Source of the DNA: Microthyrium microscopicum
Taxonomy: Eukaryota
Length of the DNA: 64,000 nt
Direction of reading: 5' to 3'
Assembly: GCA_010405405.1 (NCBI GenBank)
Contig: MU004234.1
Span: 2,205,697 to 2,269,696, forward strand
Shown piece after piece: positions 13,400-31,286 of the stretch (positions are counted from its first letter, which is position 1; each line of letters opens with the position of its first letter). The position numbers and the translations under genes were made by a program. The notes beneath the pieces are model-generated. The model worked only from the letters and a program-made list of their open reading frames with translations. It had not been told where the DNA came from and did not search any database.

Positions 13400-14626
13400 A
13401 TGACCGCCTCTCCTATTCCCTCCAATCCTCCAGATCTCTCAAATCGACTTCCACCTCTAATACCGCGTCGACGAAATCCTTCAGAGCAATCACAGCCATT
13501 AGAACCAGCTCCAGAGACCCCGTCTCTTCCTGAACCTGTGTCTCTGGACGCGGCCTCTTTTCAAAACCCAACTCGTCGAATTTTGTCCCCTCGTGATCTA
13601 GAGCTCTTCCAAAAGTCGCCCACATACTCTCTCATACTCGCATTCATATTTGGCATATCCGATGCCGTGAGAAACAAGACTACGCGCGCTGTAGCTACCG
13701 AAGAGCGAGAAGAAGTGGTGACTTCGATACTAGAGATATTGAACGATGCGAAAGCCCTTCTAAAAGAGCACCCAGCTTTAGACACAGGCTCACGATTTGG
13801 CAACCCAATCTTCCGATCCTATCTTGACTCGGTATCGAAAAAGCTGGAACAATGGCACAAAAAACTGGGCGTGCCTGCCGCTGCGATACAAGAGGCCAGT
13901 ACCTATCTCGAGCATTCATTCGGGAGTGCGGATCGCATTGACTACGGAAGCGGACACGAACTCAACTTCTTTCTGTGGCTTCTCTGCCTAAATCGACTAT
14001 CTCTCCTCCCAAAAAGTACATTCCCGGCCCTTGCGTTAGTTGTATTCCCACAATATCTCCAGCTGATGCGATCAATACAAATGACATACTACCTGGAACC
14101 CGCCGGCTCCCACGGAGTGTGGGGATTAGATGATTACCAATTTCTACCATTCCTATTTGGAGCGGCACAGCTAGCTCAGCACCGCTATATAACGCCCAAA
14201 TCAATCCACAACGCAGCAACACTCGAAGAATGCAGCAAAGACTTCCTCTATCTTGATCAAGTAGCTTTCGTCAACAGCGTCAAGAATGTCGAAGGATTAA
14301 GGTGGCATAGCCCAATGCTAGACGATATCTCGGCTGCCAAAAGCTGGACAAAGATCGAGGCAGGAATGAAGAAAATGTTCGTTAAAGAGGTTCTTGGGAA
14401 GCTTCCGGTCATGCAGCATTTTCTATTTGGGTCTATGATTCCGGCGGCGAAGGGCATGAGTGAGGACGCAGAGTCTCATGATATCGAGCATGATCACGAT
14501 CATGCGCACGAGTCTGGCCAGACTTGGGATGACTGCTGTGGTATTAAAGTTCCCAGTAGCCTGGGTGCAGCTGGAGAGGAGAAGCGTAGAGGTGGTGAAA
14601 GTCTCCGTAGGATACCATTTGACTAA
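13400..14626 (+). CDS. RRD2: Phosphotyrosyl phosphatase activator (PP2A activator), Rrd2 type
   Basis: SRFGNP, RIDYGSGHELNF, YYLEPAGSHGVWGLDDYQFLPF, LRWHSPMLDDIS; intronless; first ATG at 13400. Confidence 0.93.
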   Translation: MTASPIPSNPPDLSNRLPPLIPRRRNPSEQSQPLEPAPETPSLPEPVSLDAASFQNPTRRILSPRDLELFQKSPTYSLILAFIFGISDAVRNKTTRAVATEEREEVVTSILEILNDAKALLKEHPALDTGSRFGNPIFRSYLDSVSKKLEQWHKKLGVPAAAIQEASTYLEHSFGSADRIDYGSGHELNFFLWLLCLNRLSLLPKSTFPALALVVFPQYLQLMRSIQMTYYLEPAGSHGVWGLDDYQFLPFLFGAAQLAQHRYITPKSIHNAATLEECSKDFLYLDQVAFVNSVKNVEGLRWHSPMLDDISAAKSWTKIEAGMKKMFVKEVLGKLPVMQHFLFGSMIPAAKGMSEDAESHDIEHDHDHAHESGQTWDDCCGIKVPSSLGAAGEEKRRGGESLRRIPFD

Positions 14627-14827: not shown

Positions 14828-15434
14828 CTACACAGCCGGCTTCTCAGCCCTCGCCAACTCCTTCTCAATAGTCGCCTCCAACGTCTCCGGCTTCGCCATA
14901 CTCGACCACCTTTCCTTAACCTTGCCATCCGCGCCAATCAAAAACTTTTCAAAATTCCACTTGATCATCTCCACATTCTTGCTCACAAAGCCCACGCCAA
15001 TCTTCGCCGGCTTCTCATGCTTCATCCACTCCCAAACCGGCGCCGCCCCCTTGCCATTCACCTCGACTTTCGCCATGACGGGAAACTTGGTGTTGTAGTT
15101 GGTGGAACAGAATGTTTGGATCTCGGCGTCAGTGCCGGGGTCTTGGCTGCCGAATTGGTTGCAGGGGAAGGCGATTAGTTCGAATTTGTCGCCGTGGGTG
15201 GCGCGCATTTTTTCGTAGAGCTTTTGGAGGCCGTCGAGTTGGGGTGTGAATCTATGTGTATATACATTAGTTTTGAGATGGGGAAGAAGAGGGGTGGGGA
15301 GGAGAGGAGGCGTACCCGCATTTTGAGGCGGTGTTGACGACGAGAACGACTTTGCCTTTGTATTCGGAGAGCGGGATGGGTTCGCCGCTGCCGTTGAGGG
15401 GCTTGAAATCGTAGAAGCTTGTTGCGGATGCCAT
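14828..15434 (-). CDS. HYR1: Cys-type glutathione/thioredoxin peroxidase
   Basis: [12 protein letters not shown] across intron 15252-15315, [16 protein letters not shown]; an in-frame upstream ATG lies at 15692. Confidence 0.93.
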
Positions 15435-16485
15435 GGTGTGTCTTGATGTGGTGGTGAAGGACTTTGCGGATGCAGGAAGGTTTATATGCTGTTGTGTCGG
15501 TTGGCGGGTGTAGCGTTGGTAGCCGTGTGAATCCGGGATACGGTTGAATTCCAAATACCTAGGAGAGGAAGGTGTAGATAGCAGTCGTACTTGTACGAGT
15601 GATGCGGTTGGTGGGGCAGTCGGCGAGTTGGTGGGAGAGCAAGTGCTTATGGAATGTAGTCGAAAGAAGGTCCGAGGAGTCCGTGACAGCATGGCCACGT
15701 TTTGAATGATTTACCTTGGTGCCCCTCGTGTGATTTTATCGCTAGATTGACTGGGGCCATCATGAGACGTTTGGAGAGTCGCAAGGCGGACGGTGACGTA
15801 GCAAGTCCTTGGCGAATGAAAGAGATTATTGCCTTTTCGTTTGTACGATCCCTGTCATGAAAGGCTGAAACACGATGAGCAATTGTCGAGAGACCGATGA
15901 CTGTGAGCTCTCGGCTTTGTACAAAGATAGAATGCGTGAGAATTCAAATATCGAGCGATTCGTCTATGGTTGGTCAGGGCGAATTTACACTCAACGCGAT
16001 GTGGATATAGAAATGATGATAACTTTGCTTTATTTTAATAGCCATATTAAGCTAAACGAAATACCCAAACTCCAGTATCTGCTACTTCTGCTTATAAAAT
16101 GTAGATACATGACAACAACTTATACATTCTCTTCTGCTCTGCTTGGCTTAGTGTTTACAAGACTGCCATACGAACAACACAAAAAAAGAAATCGATCCTC
16201 CATGTGGAGCTGATAGAAACAGTACCGGCTAAAGCCGCGCTTGAAGACGTTTATGAGCCGTCGAAGCGTTTCTGGTCTTAGCCAGTAGGGAAGTCCTCGC
16301 TCTACAAAGAGTCAAAAGGGTAGTAGCACAAGCCGGTTGGCTTCTGGTGCAAAGAAGGTGGAAATCCAAAAGGATCCGGTGATAGAAATACGGTCTAAGC
16401 CAAAGAGCAGAGAACCTAGGAAACATGCCTAGTGTATATGTTAGTGGGTTTTCCTGATGGTGGTTGAAGTGAGAAATGCTTACAT

Positions 16486-18752
16486 TCAGTCATTTGCAGA
16501 TGTGTTCTGCGTGGTGAGTGCCGAGATGGCGTCCTCGAGCCGGGAAACTTCAGCCTTGAGTTGCTGGATGTACTTTTGGGCGTTGGGGTTGCTTTGCTCT
16601 GGGAGCTTGAAGACGATCTTGCCAATGCTCTCGCGGCTGGCTCTGTACTGCTTTTCGAGCTTCTCCCTTCGTGCGCGGGAGCTGGACTGCTTGCGGACAC
16701 CGCTGGTTGCGACGGCGGAGCTTTTGGTGGATGACATGGAGGTGCCGCTGACGTTGCTGGTGCTGGACTTGCGAACACGCTTGCTCTTCTTGAGAAATTG
16801 CGTGACATCAAGCTCACGGTGGACGCGTTGGATGTGGTCGCCCATGTTATACTCGCGTGGGAAGCCGCGGTTATGGCGCTCGCAGGTTGGTACTGGGCAG
16901 AAGAATTGGCAAGCGGCGTGCATGCCATGTGCTTCCTTTTCGTGGCGAGTGAGAACGGCCTTAGAGGAAAACTGCATTCCGTGGCAGTCCATGTGCCGAC
17001 AGATGTTGGTCTTGAGGGTAGACTCGAGGTGCTTTCGGAGCATGCACTTGCGGTCCGCGATGAAATCGCAGGCGTGGTCCTCGGCGTTGACGTCCTGGCA
17101 GTGGTACTTGCCATCCTCAGAGGGCTCTAGTTCGCCGAGAAGGTTCTCAAGAACTTCATCGGAATCCGCTGGCTCAGAACCTTCGTCATCAAGGTAGTCG
17201 GTGGCAGCTGGAGTTGCTGGGTCCATGATGGACATCACTGGAGACATGGCAACAGACAGAGCTCCAGAGCTGATCACACTGGAAAAGGCTGGGGAGGTGG
17301 GTGATGTGGGTGATTGCATGAAAGATTCTCCGTCATACATGCTGGGAGCATATGAGGCGTTGCTGCTTGCAGTCTCAATGTGAAAAAGGTTGTCCTCGAA
17401 CATGGGTTGCGCATTGTCTGCTGCTGTCCATTGGAAGCTATCCATGGAGTAATTGTATTGATGTGGTCCATAAGCAACCATTGGCGCGTCATGGCTGTCA
17501 ATCATTGTAGAGCCGAAAGTGAAGCCTTTGAGATCGGATGATCCATATTGTTCAGAGTAAAGAGATTCCGAAGATGTGGATGGGGATGGTTGTCCTAGGA
17601 TTTTGCTTCTGAGAGCTTCCCTATCATGGTCGCTGCAAACACAAAATGTTAGTCTCCCGGAATCCTTGAAGTGGCAAAACTCAGAGCCCATGAACAAAAA
17701 CAATGCAGAACATAGGAAATTTAAACAGGATTGATCAGGTTAGTTGCAGCGAGCAGTGTTAGTATTCCAGCCTTGAGGGGGCCTGTTGACAAGCAAGAGC
17801 ATTTTGAATCCGGTGTTTTGTGTAAATCTCAGATGGAAGAACTGAGTTTCGAGGGAATCACTCGCAATAACAATTGACCAGAAGGGATGAATCCTGGCAG
17901 AGCCATGAAGGAACTCCAATGCGCAAAGGATGACAGCAAGTCCAGAATAGAAGCAGAAACCAGAAAGCAAGAACATCCAAGGAAGTTTTGACTCAATATG
18001 AAGTCATTACGAGTTCTACGCCGATGTGGTTAGTTCACAACATTCGATTTTGAAATGTTGAGGCGTGAGCCATTGTATGAACATACACTGAGAGATGACC
18101 GGCATCTCGCACATCCAGTCTACAGTTCCAGGATTGTCCGAGGATAAAAAAGCATGTGCAGACCATCCGGCATTGGAAGTTGTCCAAGAAAGTCCATGGG
18201 AGTAAATAGATATCCAGGGTGAAAAGTTCGCTACAAACAAGATATCAAGTCCGACTGTCAAATTTGAACAGTCGTAAGTGACTTGGCATAATCAAGTATG
18301 CGTGCTTACGTCCGGACTTCATGTCAAATGCAACGGTTTGCAGTTCCATCTCAAAGTTGGCCAAGGATGATACTGAATCTAATTCCCATGGTTGATGACG
18401 CAAGAATCCGCCTCTGGAAGAGATCATGCGCAGCCGCAGCACAAAAGTACAGCTCAGCTAACAGCAAAGATACCTCGGCAAGTTGAACAGTGCAGGAAGC
18501 ACGAACGACCAGGAAGGTCGACATCCTATACAACGCAATCATCTGGTGACGAATGGAGCATGCAATCCAAGCCATGAGAACAAGATGATCCGGAATATCC
18601 AAGGAAAGAAGAGTAGCCTGGTAGCTAGCTGTATACATTGAAGTAGACATATGAAACAGACATGAAAATGCGATCAACAAGAAAAACGTAGCAGAAGACA
18701 ATCCGTAAAAACGCCCTTGTGGAGTCCTGAGGTGGAGTAATTACCTGTACAT
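16486..18752 (-). CDS. C2H2 zinc-finger transcription factor; proposed 8-nt first coding exon (18745-18752) plus main exon (16486-17632)
   Basis: Fingers C..C...FSSKAVLTRHEKEAH and CPVPTC...GFPREYNMGDHIQRVH, C-terminal coiled coil; CTAAC...TTGCAG acceptor at 17633; ATGTACAG|GTAATT donor at 18744 joins in frame (MYSDHDREAL). First exon is inferred. Confidence 0.8.
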
Positions 18753-19607: not shown

Positions 19608-20370
19608 TTACATGGAAGCCTTAAGAGATGCAAACACATCAGCACTCTTCCCGAGGTATCTCTGCTCAGCCGTCTTCCAACTGATAACGCTCCAGATATT
19701 CTCAACATAGGCCGCCTTGCCATTCAGATACTGACCGGTCATGTTAGCAACGCGGCCATCAACCTCAGGGGTTTACAAATCAATACCTGCAAATAATATG
19801 CGTGTTCCCACATATCAACTCCAAAGAGAGGCACCTCGCCAGCTCCAACTACAGGATCCTGGTCTTTTGTGGTGACGATTCCAATGCGACCATTCTCGTT
19901 GTCAAATCTGACTAACCAACCCCATCCACTGCCTTGGATTCCTAGAAGAGCTGCGTTGAACTTGTCCTTGAATGCTTTCTCACTGCCGAACGTGGCTTTG
20001 ATGGCCTCACTTAGCTTGGGTGCTGCATTGATCTTGGTATCTAGCGATGATGGGGGTGCGAGGTTTTGCCAGAAGAGTGAGTGGTTGATATGGCCGCCAC
20101 CATGAAATCGCAGCGCAGGCTGAAGTTGAATTTGGGTTGGGATATCATTGTTCGCCTGAGCAGTGGCAAGTGACTTTGCCGCGTTATTCAGGTTCGTAAC
20201 GTATGTCTGGTGATGTTTGCTATGGTGTAGCTCCATTATCTGGGCCGAGATGGCCGGCTCCAATGCCTGTGACCCGAGTTAGAACTACATCGGATGCAAC
20301 ATCAACCTCATTTTAGTCTCACGTTATAGGCATAAGGAAGCTTTGGTAGTGTGTAAGTAGTGGCTGCCAT
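19608..20370 (-). CDS. Manganese superoxide dismutase without mitochondrial presequence (cytosolic SOD3 type)
   Basis: MAATTYTLPKLPYAYNALEP, ELHHSKHHQTYV, GGGHINH, IQGSGWGW, DMWEHAYYLQY; two introns; ends ...FASLKASM. Confidence 0.95.
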
Positions 20371-20544
20371 ATTGAATGTACTCAAAAGGCGTGGACGGTG
20401 GTTGTATGATGAGGTGGTTTTTTGATAGAGAAAATAACGTGCTCGCAGGATCAAGTTTTACGAAAAGAGTCAGTTGAGCTTATATTTATCTTCTCAATTT
20501 TGTTGTTGAACGGTTCGGAAATTTTTGTATGTCTTTCCAGGGTT

Positions 20545-20630
20545 TGAGCACGTATTCCAGGCCGATAAATATGCTCAAAACTTTCTCATCTTTAACTTGC
20601 TCATGGCCCAAACCTGCGCGTTTTTGCTCA
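20545..20630. promoter_or_regulatory. Cluster of four TGCTCA (Mac1/CuRE-like) elements in a divergent promoter
   Basis: TGAGCA 20545-20550 (reverse), TGCTCA 20572-20577, 20598-20603 and 20625-20630 (the last a full TTTGCTCA); also TGCTCG at 20440-20445. Confidence 0.7.
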
Positions 20631-20818
20631 CTCGGTCCCAGAATCGACACAAGACTCCGAAGACCCCGAAGTCTCCGATGGGACAAAATGTGGAACGCAA
20701 CCATATCGATGGAGCGTTTAAGATCTTTATAATGCGTTGTTCAATAAAAGCCTATCACCGCCGTTGCTCCTGGGAGATTCCATACTGAATATCACCTTCT
20801 GGCCAACAGTATATCAAC

Positions 20819-21282
20819 ATGTGTGGAGACTCGAGCAGACAAAGCGAAGGAGGAGCAATCGCTATCCTCCAGACCATCAATCAAATACACCAACCACAGC
20901 ACACCACAAACTCCGAGCTCCGCTTCCATACAGATCATAACACTCTGTACGCCAACCGCATATCATACACCAGTCGGGATGCCGGCATCCCCACTGACTT
21001 CTTTGTAGTCATACAGTAAGTCACCAGCTCCCGACCTATATTGATTGCTAAAATTTGCATAGCAAACAAGGCGATATGACGAAGCCAATCAACGCAGCCG
21101 AATACTTGCACAAGCTACATTTCCTTCCAAGCAGCGTCGACTCGTCAGGCACGAGATCTCTGAAGCTTGATAACCCATTACAAATAAGCCCTGGCGGTGA
21201 AGGGGTAATTGGTCGCCGAGTTTTGCTGTATGAATCATCTGGTCAGAGTCCGCTGGCCGAGGGTCTGATAGGGTGGAACTGA
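20819..21282 (+). CDS. Small Cu/Zn-SOD-fold-like protein lacking most metal ligands
   Basis: Intron 21016-21062 joins MCGDSS...FFVVIH to KQGDMT...LQISPGGEGVIGRRVLLY...LAEGLIGWN; these segments parallel SOD1 FHIHEFGD and SVIGRTVVV...ACGVIG. Confidence 0.72.
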
Positions 21283-21773: not shown

Positions 21774-22768
21774 CTATGCTTTTACCTTTGGGGTCCATCT
21801 TTCCGCAGCCTTGTCGAATTCAGACTTTTTCTCGGCCAAGTCTAGTAAAAGCTGATGGTTGGGATTTGACTTTTGAAGCGCCTTCTTTTGCTCTGCGACA
21901 TCTTTGCCGGCAATCGTATTTAGAACGATTAGGTTGGCCAGTACGTCCGCATTGTCGGCATCTAGCCCTTGAGCTTGTTCGAACGCTGCTTCTGACTCTT
22001 GTAATCTACCAAGATGGAGCTCGGATATGGCCTGGCTAGTGAGGGACTGAACGGATTGTGTAGCTTCTGCTTGGGCCAGCTCTTCAAACACGTAGTACGC
22101 TGCCTGGTACTTTTCTCCACCCTGGCGCAAGAAGTCAGCATACCATAGTTGTAGTCTCAACGTGTCGCACTCACCTCTCTCATCCCTATCCACGACTCTG
22201 CGATGTTGACCAGCAAGTTATCCTGTGCCCATTTTCTTGCCGCTGTTGCTGCCTTCTTGGCCAGATCCAGACGATTCCTCGAAAGCTCGATTTGAACAAT
22301 GACGGCCACCCTGTTCAACATCAGTTCTGAATTTCAGTCGCCAATTGATCTGCCCTACACGTCTAAGCTGCCCTGATGTTTTGCTAGCAAAGCTAGAGCT
22401 TCATCCACCTTACCAGCACTCGCCAGCACAGTGCCACATAGTATTTCCACGTTCATGTTCTCCCCTTGCGACTCAGCGAGCTTCTCCGCTTTTGCCAATG
22501 CCGGCGAGCTCTCTGATGGCTTTTTGAAGTATTCGGCCGCAATGGCAGCTGCAGCATAGTCGGGCTGGGATTTCCCTTTGGCTTCTGATGCGACTTCGTC
22601 ATATTGATGCAGAGCTAGGCGGGCGCGCAATTGAAGGAGATGTGCGGGGAGTGTATATTCGGAGGAGAAGGAAGAGCTGTCCCAATCGACGACATTTTGG
22701 TATTGTCCCTGGTGGAAGGCATTGTGTATCAAGGCGAGCTCGCCGTCGGCGCTGTATGGATCGGACAT
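21774..22768 (-). CDS. SEC28: Coatomer (COPI) epsilon subunit
   Basis: MSDPYSADGELALIHNAFHQGQY, LLAKHQGSL, WAQDNLLVNIAESW, GGEKYQAAYYVFEELAQ; two introns. Confidence 0.93.
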
Positions 22769-26222: not shown

Positions 26223-27452
26223 ATGTTCTGGTGCTCACTTCTCACATTCGCTTTAGCACTCACGAATCAAAGCTTGGCTCTCAGTCAGGCTGAATACCAA
26301 ACCAATGCTGTAGCAGCAAGCAGCGCCCTCATGGGCTGGTACAATCAAACGAATGGACTTTTCCAGACGACAGACTGGTGGAACGCTGCTAGCGCAATCA
26401 CCACACTGGCTATGCTGACCAAGGTCAACCCACAAATGGAATTTGTCACCAAGAAAATATGGAACAACACCTACTACAACGCACAAAAACACAACCTCTA
26501 CCAAGAAAGGGCCACTCCAGACAGCATTGGGCCCAGTAATTCCTCAACACCTGGTCAGCATGAGCCAACGATACGCTCTTTCAACAAACACAACACATAC
26601 CACAAACGACCAGTCCGGTCGATACGAGAGAAACGAGCGTTGTTAGCAGAATGGGTGATGGAGCCGAAAGGATTCCTGAACGGATTTTACGATGATGAGG
26701 GGTGGTGGGCTCTGGCTTGGTTGAATGTTTATGATATTTCGCGCAACAAAGATCATCTCCTCGCCGCCACAGATATTTTTAATGACATGGTTAGCACTGG
26801 ATACAACGCGACTTGTGGGGGAATCTGGTGGAACAAGAAAAGAAACTACAACTCGGCAATTTCCAACGAGCTGTTCCTCAGTGTAGCTGCTCACTTGGCC
26901 ACGCGCGTTGACAACAAAGACTACTATGTCAACTGGGCTAAGAGACAGTGGGACTGGTTCCAAAAGAGTGGTCTAATCAACAAGGACTACAACATCAATG
27001 ATGGTCTCGACACAGACTGCAAGAACAATGATGGAGTTGTATGGTCATACAACCAAGGGGTCATCCTTGGAGCCCTATCCGAATTGTCGAAAGCTGATCG
27101 CAACAACACCTACCCCTACCTCGCAACAGCCAAGAAGATTGCACTTGCAGCGAAAAGCAAACTCGCAGATAAGAATGGTATTCTTCACGACCATCGGGAA
27201 CCAAACCTTGGCAATGATGGCAATCAGTTCAAGGGAGTCTTCGTCAGAAATCTTTGGCAACTATACGAGACAACCCAGGAACCATGGATGAAAACCTTCT
27301 TGCTCGATAACGCCAAAGCAGTTTGGCGCTCTGGTCGCAACACGACTACTAATCGTATGGGTCCTGTATGGTCGGGCCCTTATTATCCTGCGACAGCGGC
27401 AACCCACAGTTCAGCTCTCGATGTTCTTGTCGCCGCAGCAGGCGTTGCCTAA
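26223..27452 (+). CDS. Secreted GH76 alpha-1,6-mannanase (intronless, no GPI tail)
   Basis: Signal peptide; WWNAAS, FYDDEGWWALAW (catalytic DD), CGGIWW, AISNELF, WSYNQGVIL, QFKGVFVRNL. Confidence 0.93.
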   Translation: MFWCSLLTFALALTNQSLALSQAEYQTNAVAASSALMGWYNQTNGLFQTTDWWNAASAITTLAMLTKVNPQMEFVTKKIWNNTYYNAQKHNLYQERATPDSIGPSNSSTPGQHEPTIRSFNKHNTYHKRPVRSIREKRALLAEWVMEPKGFLNGFYDDEGWWALAWLNVYDISRNKDHLLAATDIFNDMVSTGYNATCGGIWWNKKRNYNSAISNELFLSVAAHLATRVDNKDYYVNWAKRQWDWFQKSGLINKDYNINDGLDTDCKNNDGVVWSYNQGVILGALSELSKADRNNTYPYLATAKKIALAAKSKLADKNGILHDHREPNLGNDGNQFKGVFVRNLWQLYETTQEPWMKTFLLDNAKAVWRSGRNTTTNRMGPVWSGPYYPATAATHSSALDVLVAAAGVA

Positions 27453-29573: not shown

Positions 29574-31286
29574 CTAGAGACAAAATCGGGTTCCTGCGAT
29601 CATAAAACAATAGTGAGACGGCTTAGGTAGGCTCATCGATGGGACGCCCCATCTATTGTTCCAAGACGCACCGTTAGCCGCGGTGGAAGCTGGCCAAGCA
29701 GTGGCAGGTGTTGGATTGGCCCAGCCGTTGGTGTATGGGCTGGGCACTGGAGTCGTGGAAGTGGCGAATGTTGATGGTTGTGTAAAGACTGGTACACTGG
29801 ATGTAAACAATGATGGTGAAGAGAGTGGGACGCTGTTTGGTGTAGGGACTGAAGAGACTTGAATGGGGGTCACTTGATTCGTGGTGTCTGGCACTGATTG
29901 TGGATTGGTAGGTATTGGTGTCGCGGAGCTTGGGAAGTCTGTGAGAGTTGGAACGGATGACAATACAGTCGCCGACGGCGCAGATACAACAATGTCGGTG
30001 GATCCACTTGATGATGGAGGAAATGCTGTGAACAGAGATGCCACCGGTGTTGTATCAGAGGCAGGTACCGTCAACGGCTGTGTTGGCTCGATGGTTGATG
30101 ATGATGGAAAGAAGTCGGTTATAACACTAATGACTGGGGTTGATTCCGAAGCTGAGGCTGGAGCTGTAGCAGTATCAGTTTCTGTCGTCGACGTGCTGAA
30201 TGCTGTCAACACTGTTTCGATAGGTGTGGTGGTGCCGGTAGCAATATCAGTATCCGTGGACAATGTGCTGAATGCTGTCAACACGGTTTCGACAGGTGTG
30301 GTGGTGCCGGTAGCGGTATCGGTATCAGTATCTGTGGACAAAGTGCTGAATGCTGTCAACACAGTTTCAACAGGTGTAGTGGTGCTGGCCGGGGCGATTG
30401 CTGGGGACGTAGCAGTATCTACAGTATCTGTAGTCGATGGACCAAAACCCGTCAAAATGGTTTCGACCAAAGTCGTGCTGTCGGTAGGGGTAGATGCTGG
30501 AGAAGTGACGGAGTCCGTAGTTTCTGTCTCCGTGAACGATCTTGTGCTATATTCCGTTAAGATTGTCTCGATAGGGGTAGTGGTATCGGCAGGAGAAGTT
30601 GTAGCGGCGCCTACAGTACTCTCAGGAGTTGAAACTTCCGGAAGTGTAGTCACGCCAGTGGTAGAAGGCGTCTCCGTGGTAACAAGACTCTCAGTCGCTG
30701 GGCTCGTTTCAACAGCCGATGTGATCTCGGGGGTGGAAGTTGAGTCTGTGATATCAGGTGTTGTAGTTGAATCCGTGACATCAGGGATTGGGGTCGACGT
30801 AACATCAGGAGTCGTAGTTGAATCCGTGACATCGGGAGTTGGAGTCGTAGTAACATCGACCGTGGAGCCAATATCACCAGTCGGTGTCTCTGTCCATACA
30901 GGTGTAGCCGTCTCCGACCACACCGGTATACTCGTCTCAGTCCATCCCGTCGTCTCAGTCCCAGGTACCGGCACAACCACAGCCGTACTAGTAACAACAA
31001 CAATCTCATCAGTCGAAGAGGGCGCCGTCGTCAACGCGCTCACACTTCCTCCACAAGTTCCAAAGCCCGTCTGACAGCCACTTGAACAGTACTCATCAGT
31101 TCCACCACACCAACCATACTGGCTACAGCAATCACCGTACGCGCTTCCCGTACATACATGACCGCTTGCTCCACCACAAGTACCATCAGGAGATGGCGTT
31201 GTATAAGAGGGTGGTTCATCCCACGCAACAGGCGAAGCAGCCACAAGCGCAGAGAGGCCGAGGAGAATTGCTGGAGAGAAATGCAT
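29574..31286 (-). CDS. Secreted CBM18 (hevein) chitin-binding protein with Thr-rich mucin-like region
   Basis: Signal peptide MHFSPAILLGLSALVAA; SPDGTCGG...CCSQYGWCG...YCSSGCQTGFGTC; long T/S/P-rich repeat region follows. Confidence 0.9.
   Translation of the reverse strand: MHFSPAILLGLSALVAASPVAWDEPPSYTTPSPDGTCGGASGHVCTGSAYGDCCSQYGWCGGTDEYCSSGCQTGFGTCGGSVSALTTAPSSTDEIVVVTSTAVVVPVPGTETTGWTETSIPVWSETATPVWTETPTGDIGSTVDVTTTPTPDVTDSTTTPDVTSTPIPDVTDSTTTPDITDSTSTPEITSAVETSPATESLVTTETPSTTGVTTLPEVSTPESTVGAATTSPADTTTPIETILTEYSTRSFTETETTDSVTSPASTPTDSTTLVETILTGFGPSTTDTVDTATSPAIAPASTTTPVETVLTAFSTLSTDTDTDTATGTTTPVETVLTAFSTLSTDTDIATGTTTPIETVLTAFSTSTTETDTATAPASASESTPVISVITDFFPSSSTIEPTQPLTVPASDTTPVASLFTAFPPSSSGSTDIVVSAPSATVLSSVPTLTDFPSSATPIPTNPQSVPDTTNQVTPIQVSSVPTPNSVPLSSPSLFTSSVPVFTQPSTFATSTTPVPSPYTNGWANPTPATAWPASTAANGASWNNRWGVPSMSLPKPSHYCFMIAGTRFCL
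30190..30385 (-). repeat. Intragenic tandem repeats encoding TTTP(V/I)ETVLTAFST units
   Basis: Three near-identical copies of GTGCTGAATGCTGTCAACAC.GTTTC on the + strand with degenerate copies on both sides. Confidence 0.85.

Follow-up and report, generated by a model that had tools for sequence, protein, structure and literature searches.

In this study, a 64,000-nucleotide stretch of contig MU004234.1 of the fungus Microthyrium microscopicum (the window) was analyzed around two divergent genes, one for a manganese superoxide dismutase (MnSOD; SOD, superoxide dismutase) and the other for a small protein predicted to have the Cu/Zn-SOD fold. We consider it moderately probable that this locus is a conserved two-gene unit under one copper-starvation promoter and that the small protein is non-catalytic, with a decoy for Ccs1 or Sod1 as its likeliest role. 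Within this reading, it is likely that low copper leads Mac1 to induce the two genes through their common promoter, with MnSOD relieving Sod1. According to the proposed mechanism, copper scarcity would cause Mac1, a copper-sensing activator, to bind the TGCTCA elements of the promoter and turn both genes on, MnSOD would replace Cu/Zn-Sod1 in the removal of cytosolic superoxide, and the small protein would work without catalysis. The Mac1-driven switch from SOD1 to MnSOD is known, and a linked pseudo-SOD is undescribed in the literature that we found.

The spliced MnSOD coding sequence (Table 1), with two introns of 56 nt each, both GT..AG, is identical to P0220 (216 amino acids, 'manganese and iron superoxide dismutase [Microthyrium microscopicum]'). 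The alignment with orthologues showed that only five residues stand ahead of the conserved LPKLPY, which therefore leaves no room for a presequence and points to a cytosolic type; as judged from its sequence, the enzyme is of the presequence-less cytosolic type (fungal Sod3 / Asp f 6 type). A short N-terminus like that of the MnSOD of the window was present in seven of ten aligned orthologues. The residues H30, H78, D167, and H171, the presumed metal ligands, were invariant or nearly so among 11 orthologues aligned. A first-pass annotation of this DNA had described a presequence-less MnSOD on the minus strand, and the spliced model, the Pfam matches, and the ortholog alignment bore this out.

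Some of the MnSOD models that are linked to the small gene in other fungi (P0297, P0339, and P0352, from Pleosporales and Fusarium) are extended at the N-terminus by a hydrophobic segment of 37-50 amino acids, and P0351 and the MnSOD of the window are without it. Either an alternative isoform or an upstream exon wrongly called in the shared promoter would account for these extensions.

The spliced translation of the small gene is identical to P0001 (138 amino acids, 'hypothetical protein BT63DRAFT_239993'). The coordinates of a plus-strand gene for about 138 amino acids, diverging from MnSOD across a 448-bp spacer, were confirmed exactly as first annotated, and the three strings of residues quoted for its product were all found in the translation. 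The family of this protein belongs to the Pezizomycotina and is uncharacterised. An exhaustive HMMER scan gave 68 family representatives at an expectation value (E) <= 1e-3, and a profile search gave 399 proteins; 120 of these 399 matches were listed, and the statements on taxa rest on those. Among the matches listed, the taxa were Dothideomycetes and Sordariomycetes (Xylariales, Fusarium, Colletotrichum, Claviceps), and the named members were almost all entitled 'hypothetical protein'.

The adjacency of the small gene and MnSOD was judged by annotation order, namely consecutive GenBank accessions or locus tags, which gives neighbourhood and not orientation. A family member and an Fe/Mn-SOD were consecutive in eight of nine species: Tothia fuscella, Verruconis gallopava, Saccharata proteae, Venturia inaequalis (three assemblies), Venturia nashicola (two assemblies), Polyplosphaeria fusca, Lophiostoma macrostomum, and Fusarium lateritium (ACHAPU_001313/001314). 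With the addition of Fusarium graminearum PH-1, in which the family member is FGSG_02050 and MnSOD is FGSG_02051, the two adjoin each other in nine of the ten species checked. In two previous reports, FGSG_02051 appears as 'MnSOD2', an Fe-Mn SOD (PMC3861502, primer table; PMC8227214). Of the 18 species in which both proteins were named, 15 also had the two on equal-sized contigs, some of these contigs being only 36 kb, and the misses were Rhizodiscina and two multi-assembly clusters.

The pair was seen in species of Microthyriales, Venturiales, Botryosphaeriales, Pleosporales, and Hypocreales. Synteny elsewhere had been set beforehand as a test of the pair, and it is kept across Dothideomycetes and in Fusarium. 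The adjacency of MnSOD and the small gene is more than chance, as the neighbour pair recurs in nine of ten other species.

Such lasting adjacency would also be explained if the small protein were an accessory of MnSOD, which binds or matures the cytosolic enzyme, for example by manganese loading or stabilisation, and the neighbours conserved in 9/10 species are in line with this. However, the adjacency is explained by the shared promoter alone, and cytosolic MnSODs apparently function in fungi without the family; no members from Saccharomycotina or Eurotiomycetes were found among the 120 listed of the 399 family matches. We regard an accessory role as highly improbable.

Concerning the shared promoter, the 448 bp between the two ATGs contain, in their middle, a cluster of four TGCTCA cores, the starts of which are spaced 26-27 bp apart. 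The cores lie 175-255 bp from the ATG of MnSOD and 194-274 bp from that of the small gene. The window holds 44 TGCTCA cores, from which 0.31 would be expected per 448 bp, and the Poisson probability of four or more in the spacer is about 3e-4. These four are the only ones in the 64-kb window with neighbouring cores <=60 bp apart, and 4 of 1000 random windows from a first-order Markov model contained a cluster of at least four cores per 100 bp. The consensus that all four cores fit, DHNTGCTCA, was taken from the Mac1 study of Fusarium oxysporum (PMC11563359) and not from M. microscopicum. An origin by tandem duplication was rejected for the cluster, since the copies share only the core. Beside the cluster, three tandem units of 9-10 nt (AAGACTCCGA, AAGACCCCGA, and AAGTCTCCGA) may be a candidate site of another factor.

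Table 1. Positions of the two genes and of the elements in their shared promoter (numbering of the window).
Feature	Position	Strand	Remarks
MnSOD exon 1	20370-20323	minus	16 codons, ATG at 20370; no mitochondrial presequence
MnSOD exon 2	20266-19787	minus	160 codons; Sod_Fe_N E 5.2e-26, Sod_Fe_C E 1.7e-23; splice junctions checked
MnSOD exon 3	19730-19608	minus	40 codons and stop; Sod_Fe_C tail (Pfam)
Shared divergent promoter	20371-20818		448 bp between the two ATGs
Cluster of four Mac1-type TGCTCA cores	20545-20630		within 86 bp; all fit DHNTGCTCA
TGCTCA core 1	20545-20550	minus	
TGCTCA core 2	20572-20577	plus	
TGCTCA core 3	20598-20603	plus	
TGCTCA core 4	20625-20630	plus	full TTTGCTCA
Three tandem 9-10-nt units	20651-20678	plus	beside the TGCTCA cluster
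TATAA box-like element	20728-20732	plus	87 bp upstream of the small-gene ATG; putative function
Small SOD-fold gene, exon 1	20819-21015	plus	codons 1-65 and two bases of codon 66 (conserved His)
Small-gene intron	21016-21062	plus	47 nt, GTAAGT..CATAG
Small SOD-fold gene, exon 2	21063-21282	plus	to stop codon; protein C-terminus is the invariant G-W-N

Several findings in the literature link this type of promoter and MnSOD with copper. The following data are reported for F. oxysporum in one article (PMC11563359): chromatin immunoprecipitation sequencing (ChIP-seq) of Mac1 yielded the consensus DHNTGCTCANNN, which its authors compare with TTTGCTCA of yeast and Candida; sod3, which codes for the cytosolic MnSOD, is one of 16 Mac1-dependent genes induced by low copper; and ChIP-seq placed Mac1 between sod3 and its neighbour FOXG_18820. 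RNA sequencing showed FOXG_18820 up in low copper, with a variability that kept it off the main list, and the article reports a Mac1-bound 'FOXG_18820 + sod3' cluster in which FOXG_18820 is left uncharacterised. As the synteny of the family and MnSOD holds in Fusarium, FOXG_18820 is probably a member of the small-protein family; the F. oxysporum member that we identified is P0186 (UniRef A0A0D2XKB5). In Candida albicans, SOD1 gives way to SOD3 under copper starvation (PMC5198983), which agrees with the Sod1-to-Sod3 switch named in the first-pass annotation.

The copper-starvation module is well supported because the TGCTCA cluster stands together with the Mac1 binding and low-copper induction in F. 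oxysporum. As first proposed, the module is upheld by the Mac1-type cluster, the synteny, and F. oxysporum sod3; the part on co-induction is deduced, for this species, from the promoter only. The accompanying claim that no such pair had been described was likewise correct in part: none has been characterised, but PMC11563359 reports the Mac1-bound FOXG_18820 and sod3. When the literature was searched for earlier accounts of the pair or the family, this article was the only one found.

Alternatively, the locus may be no copper module, and the pair may be co-regulated for oxidative stress or another cue, with a TGCTCA cluster that is fortuitous or belongs to another factor and a small protein whose role is unrelated to copper. 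This would fit a core of only 6 bp with 44 copies in the window, a copper response read in this species from the promoter only, and a glutathione peroxidase gene 4 kb off. However, the four-in-86-bp cluster, matched in only 4/1000 random windows, is located exactly in this spacer, direct control by Mac1 has been proven for the orthologous MnSOD type in F. oxysporum (PMC11563359), and MnSOD is copper-regulated in C. albicans (PMC5198983). Set against these data, a unit unrelated to copper appears unlikely.

Further evidence for the favoured copper-starvation unit concerns the fold of the small protein. The AlphaFold2 model of P0001, built from an alignment of 43 relatives, had a predicted local distance difference test score (pLDDT) of 88.2 and a predicted template modelling score (pTM) of 0.82, and contained eight strands. 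Foldseek against the PDB gave 142 matches at E <= 0.001, and the best 42 of the 142 were all Cu/Zn SOD, CCS, or the SOD-family EA4/TIME; among the matches listed, the best E was 3.7e-5 and the template modelling (TM) scores were 0.48-0.60. The ESM Atlas, with its own model of P0001, gave TM 0.63-0.65 to Sod_Cu clusters, the SOD1 copper chaperone included. For a second member, FGSG_02050 of F. graminearum, the matches listed (37) were SOD1, EC-SOD, and CCS only. An eight-stranded SOD-type Greek-key barrel was thus found by AlphaFold2, Foldseek, and the Atlas. On the SOD1-like fold that had been suggested earlier for the small protein, structure prediction and Foldseek agree, and the sequence methods did not show the link.

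As modelled, the small protein is a Cu/Zn-SOD-type barrel that has lost its metal sites. The loop between strands 4 and 5 has 13 residues and that between strands 7 and 8 has five, both without a conserved His or Asp beyond Asp70, and the zinc loop (IV) and the electrostatic loop (VII) are both missing from the predicted structure. Accordingly, neither a zinc loop carrying three His and an Asp nor an electrostatic loop with the catalytic Arg was found. P0001 contains a single cysteine, Cys2, so that an intrasubunit disulfide is absent, and of its seven histidines His66 alone is conserved across the family, in place of the four copper-binding His. The earlier description of the protein as ligand-poor is substantiated by this single Cys and by His66 as the sole conserved His (190/198).

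By SOD1 numbering, His66 is presumably the second His of the HxH pair, and Val would stand in for the first; Trp, Met, or Tyr would take the place of the His that follows the GRxxVV strand, and the position of the disulfide Cys would be Glu132. In the same numbering, we assume that the small protein keeps one of the four copper His, no zinc ligand, and no Arg143. With one conserved His and no zinc loop, the small protein therefore cannot be a superoxide dismutase, and SOD activity is excluded on these grounds.

Conservation was scored in 198 distinct members of the family, among which near-duplicates from Fusarium and Claviceps make the counts non-independent. Cys2 was kept in 195, His66 in 190, Asp70 in 187, Arg117 in 197, Arg118 in 192, Glu132 in 186, and Asn138 in all 198. 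The Met1-Cys2 start was kept in 195-197 of the 198 and opens a polar arm, MCxGxSxRxSxGG, which by appearance is not a signal peptide. Gly11-Gly12, Ile65-His66, Gly69-Asp70, Gly113-x-Ile-Gly-Arg-Arg, and the C-terminal Ala131-Glu132-Gly-Ile-x-Gly-x-Asn138 were also conserved, and the best-conserved patches were IHxxGD, GIIGRRV, and the C-terminal AEGIIGWN.

These residues bring in a different role, namely copper(I) handling, in which the Cys2 arm and an exposed His66 (plus Asp70 or Glu132) would form a small copper site and the protein would serve as a starvation scavenger or carrier and not as a decoy. The retention of Cys2 (195/198) and His66 (190/198) and the copper-starvation-type promoter of the small gene are consistent with this, as are the N-terminal arm, taken to be mobile since residues 1-10 of P0001 have a mean pLDDT of 61, and a Met in 44/198 at the presumed equivalent of SOD1 His120. 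Conversely, the obvious soft ligands are only two, CxxC and CxC motifs are absent, and the one Pfam match to CopK, in 1/43 members at E 0.029, is noise. We judge a copper(I) site to be quite unlikely.

In the favoured reading, the small protein would instead be a decoy on Ccs1 or immature Sod1, taking the dimer interface. The conserved patches IHxxGD, GIIGRRV, and AEGIIGWN presumably lie on the segments of the SOD1/CCS dimer interface, again by SOD1 numbering. A decoy that occupied the interface would keep Sod1 from consuming the little copper available. A homodimer prediction, run without controls or a family alignment, scored 0.01 in both runs with a mark of 0.32 and speaks neither for nor against binding.

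A more elaborate form of this reading, which we hold to be of low probability, is a dedicated protein-level switch against Sod1 in filamentous ascomycetes. In this form, a pseudo-SOD expressed from the Mac1 promoter of MnSOD would cap Ccs1 or nascent Sod1 via the dimer interface, and its Cys2 arm would engage the cysteines that pass copper and the disulfide. The flow of copper into the largest copper sink would then be halted within minutes, and not by dilution of Sod1, and copper would be kept for cytochrome oxidase.

The conserved surfaces also suit a division of labour, in which, under repression of Sod1, MnSOD would replace the catalysis of Sod1 and the barrel-only protein its non-catalytic structural or signalling role through partner-recognised surfaces. 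Non-catalytic roles of Sod1 are established in yeast and count for this explanation, together with the strict pairing with MnSOD across two fungal classes and the surface-forming motifs that are kept while the metal sites are lost. However, no partner is known and the same data fit the decoy model; we find a division of labour very unlikely.

Several points weigh against the favoured reading, the first of them concerning the fold. P0001 did not match Sod_Cu (PF00080) in Pfam at E <= 10, where its only match was a chance one, and Sod_Cu was found in 0/43 aligned family members at E <= 1 and in 0/15 longer or more divergent family matches at E <= 0.01. No PDB chain was matched by phmmer with the whole P0001 or with exon 2, and the family profile compared with E. 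coli SodC by hhalign gave a probability of 0.4%. The family profile against the PDB gave nine matches, all at E 0.57-1.2, comprising four yeast CCS (Lys7), two TIME, and three unrelated chains. HMMER pairs the family IHxxGDL with IHEKGDV of yeast CCS at E about 1; this alignment is not significant and, on sequence, suggestive at most. The model of FGSG_02050 is also weaker, with pLDDT 76.9, a best Foldseek E of 1.7e-3, and no match at E <= 0.001.

The same holds for some of the evidence on function and regulation. The mapping of patches and ligands to SOD1 follows SOD1 numbering and not a structural alignment, and the putative decoy on Ccs1 or immature Sod1 is speculative and rather unlikely; the same applies to the copper-sparing contact with Sod1 or Ccs1 put forward in the first-pass annotation. 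Co-induction of the two genes in M. microscopicum is suggested by the promoter sequence only, and TGCTCA is a six-base core that another factor could use. In PMC11563359, FOXG_18820 and sod3 are co-directional, not divergent, and the membership of FOXG_18820 in the family is itself deduced from synteny. Finally, Rhizodiscina lignyota has the pair on different contigs with distant accessions.

Among known systems, domain II of CCS (yeast Ccs1/Lys7) resembles the predicted small protein in being an SOD-type barrel that has lost the catalytic ligands, and it acts by protein contact. The CCS structures 1qup, 1ej8, and 1jk9 were among the Foldseek matches, and CCS was the best SOD-family match of the profile (E about 1). 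Unlike CCS domain II, which is one of three domains with copper-binding domains on both sides, the small protein is a stand-alone barrel of 138 amino acids, with a conserved Met-Cys N-terminal arm, much shorter loops, and no Sod_Cu match. The model shares its fold and strand order with Sod1 (Sod_Cu, PF00080), but it has one conserved His against four copper ligands, lacks the zinc loop, the electrostatic loop, and the disulfide, and showed no significant sequence similarity to Sod1.

The engineered monomeric human SOD1 from which loops IV and VII were deleted (4bd4) is likewise a barrel only and came fourth among the Foldseek matches (target-normalised TM 0.61); whereas 4bd4 is a laboratory construct, the small protein is natural. 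The fungal extracellular Cu-only SODs of the C. albicans Sod4-6 type are barrels without a zinc site or an electrostatic loop that retain the copper His and are active and secreted. The small protein as modelled shares the barrel and both losses with them, whereas its family retains one His.

As to regulation, the locus resembles the Mac1 regulon (C. albicans SOD3, F. oxysporum sod3), in which a cytosolic MnSOD is under TGCTCA/TTTGCTCA elements. It differs from the described Mac1 SOD switch, which involves MnSOD alone, in that a predicted SOD-fold gene shares the promoter and is linked to MnSOD across classes.

The copper-to-manganese SOD switch is textbook metal sparing in fungi and bears on the virulence of plant and human pathogens. 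With the present data, this switch gains a second, widely conserved, and unstudied gene, whose product is predicted to have the fold of the replaced enzyme without its catalysis. Should this product target Sod1 or the chaperone of Sod1, copper allocation would have a natural regulator at the protein level. The product would also represent a naturally occurring minimal SOD barrel, of use in work on SOD1 folding. Because the family spans Fusarium, Colletotrichum, Pyrenophora, Parastagonospora, Venturia, and Claviceps, its function can be tested in tractable species.

Variation and annotation within the family were also recorded. Extra cysteines occur at family positions 56 and 78 (P0001 numbering) in 71/198 and 66/198 sequences, respectively. 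The Fusarium members examined (P0192, P0186, P0155) have extra Cys and a Ser/Pro-rich tail after the C-terminal G-F-N, and P0001 is without either. One UniRef family entry is titled 'Superoxide dismutase copper/zinc binding domain-containing protein'. P0015 (Venturia nashicola) and P0160 (Pyrenophora tritici-repentis) are annotated 'oxoglutarate iron-dependent oxygenase protein'; this label had no Pfam support in P0015 and is probably a propagated misannotation. No informative Pfam domain was found as a fusion partner in the 15 longer or more divergent family matches, and P0054 (1144 amino acids), considered as a fused member, was rejected as low-complexity noise in appearance.

In the neighbourhood, the glutathione peroxidase gene lies at 14831-15481 on the minus strand (Pfam GSHPx, E 4.5e-21), about 4 kb from the 3' end of MnSOD, and is thereby a second antioxidant gene in the vicinity. 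An open frame of 417 codons at 16489-17739 on the minus strand, 2 kb downstream of MnSOD, has C2H2-like HxxxH strings and no Pfam match at E <= 0.001; by its sequence it could be a candidate transcription factor. The flanking genes at 13400-14623 (plus), 21777-22768 (minus), 26223-27449 (plus), and 29577-31280 (minus) are unrelated housekeeping or secreted ones. Their products are PTPA, coatomer epsilon, a GH76 hydrolase, and a Ser/Thr-rich protein, the last with a sub-threshold chitin-binding match (E 1.6e-5; 25.5 bits, the cut-off being 27.8). In this window, the two-gene unit lies outside any larger metal cluster.

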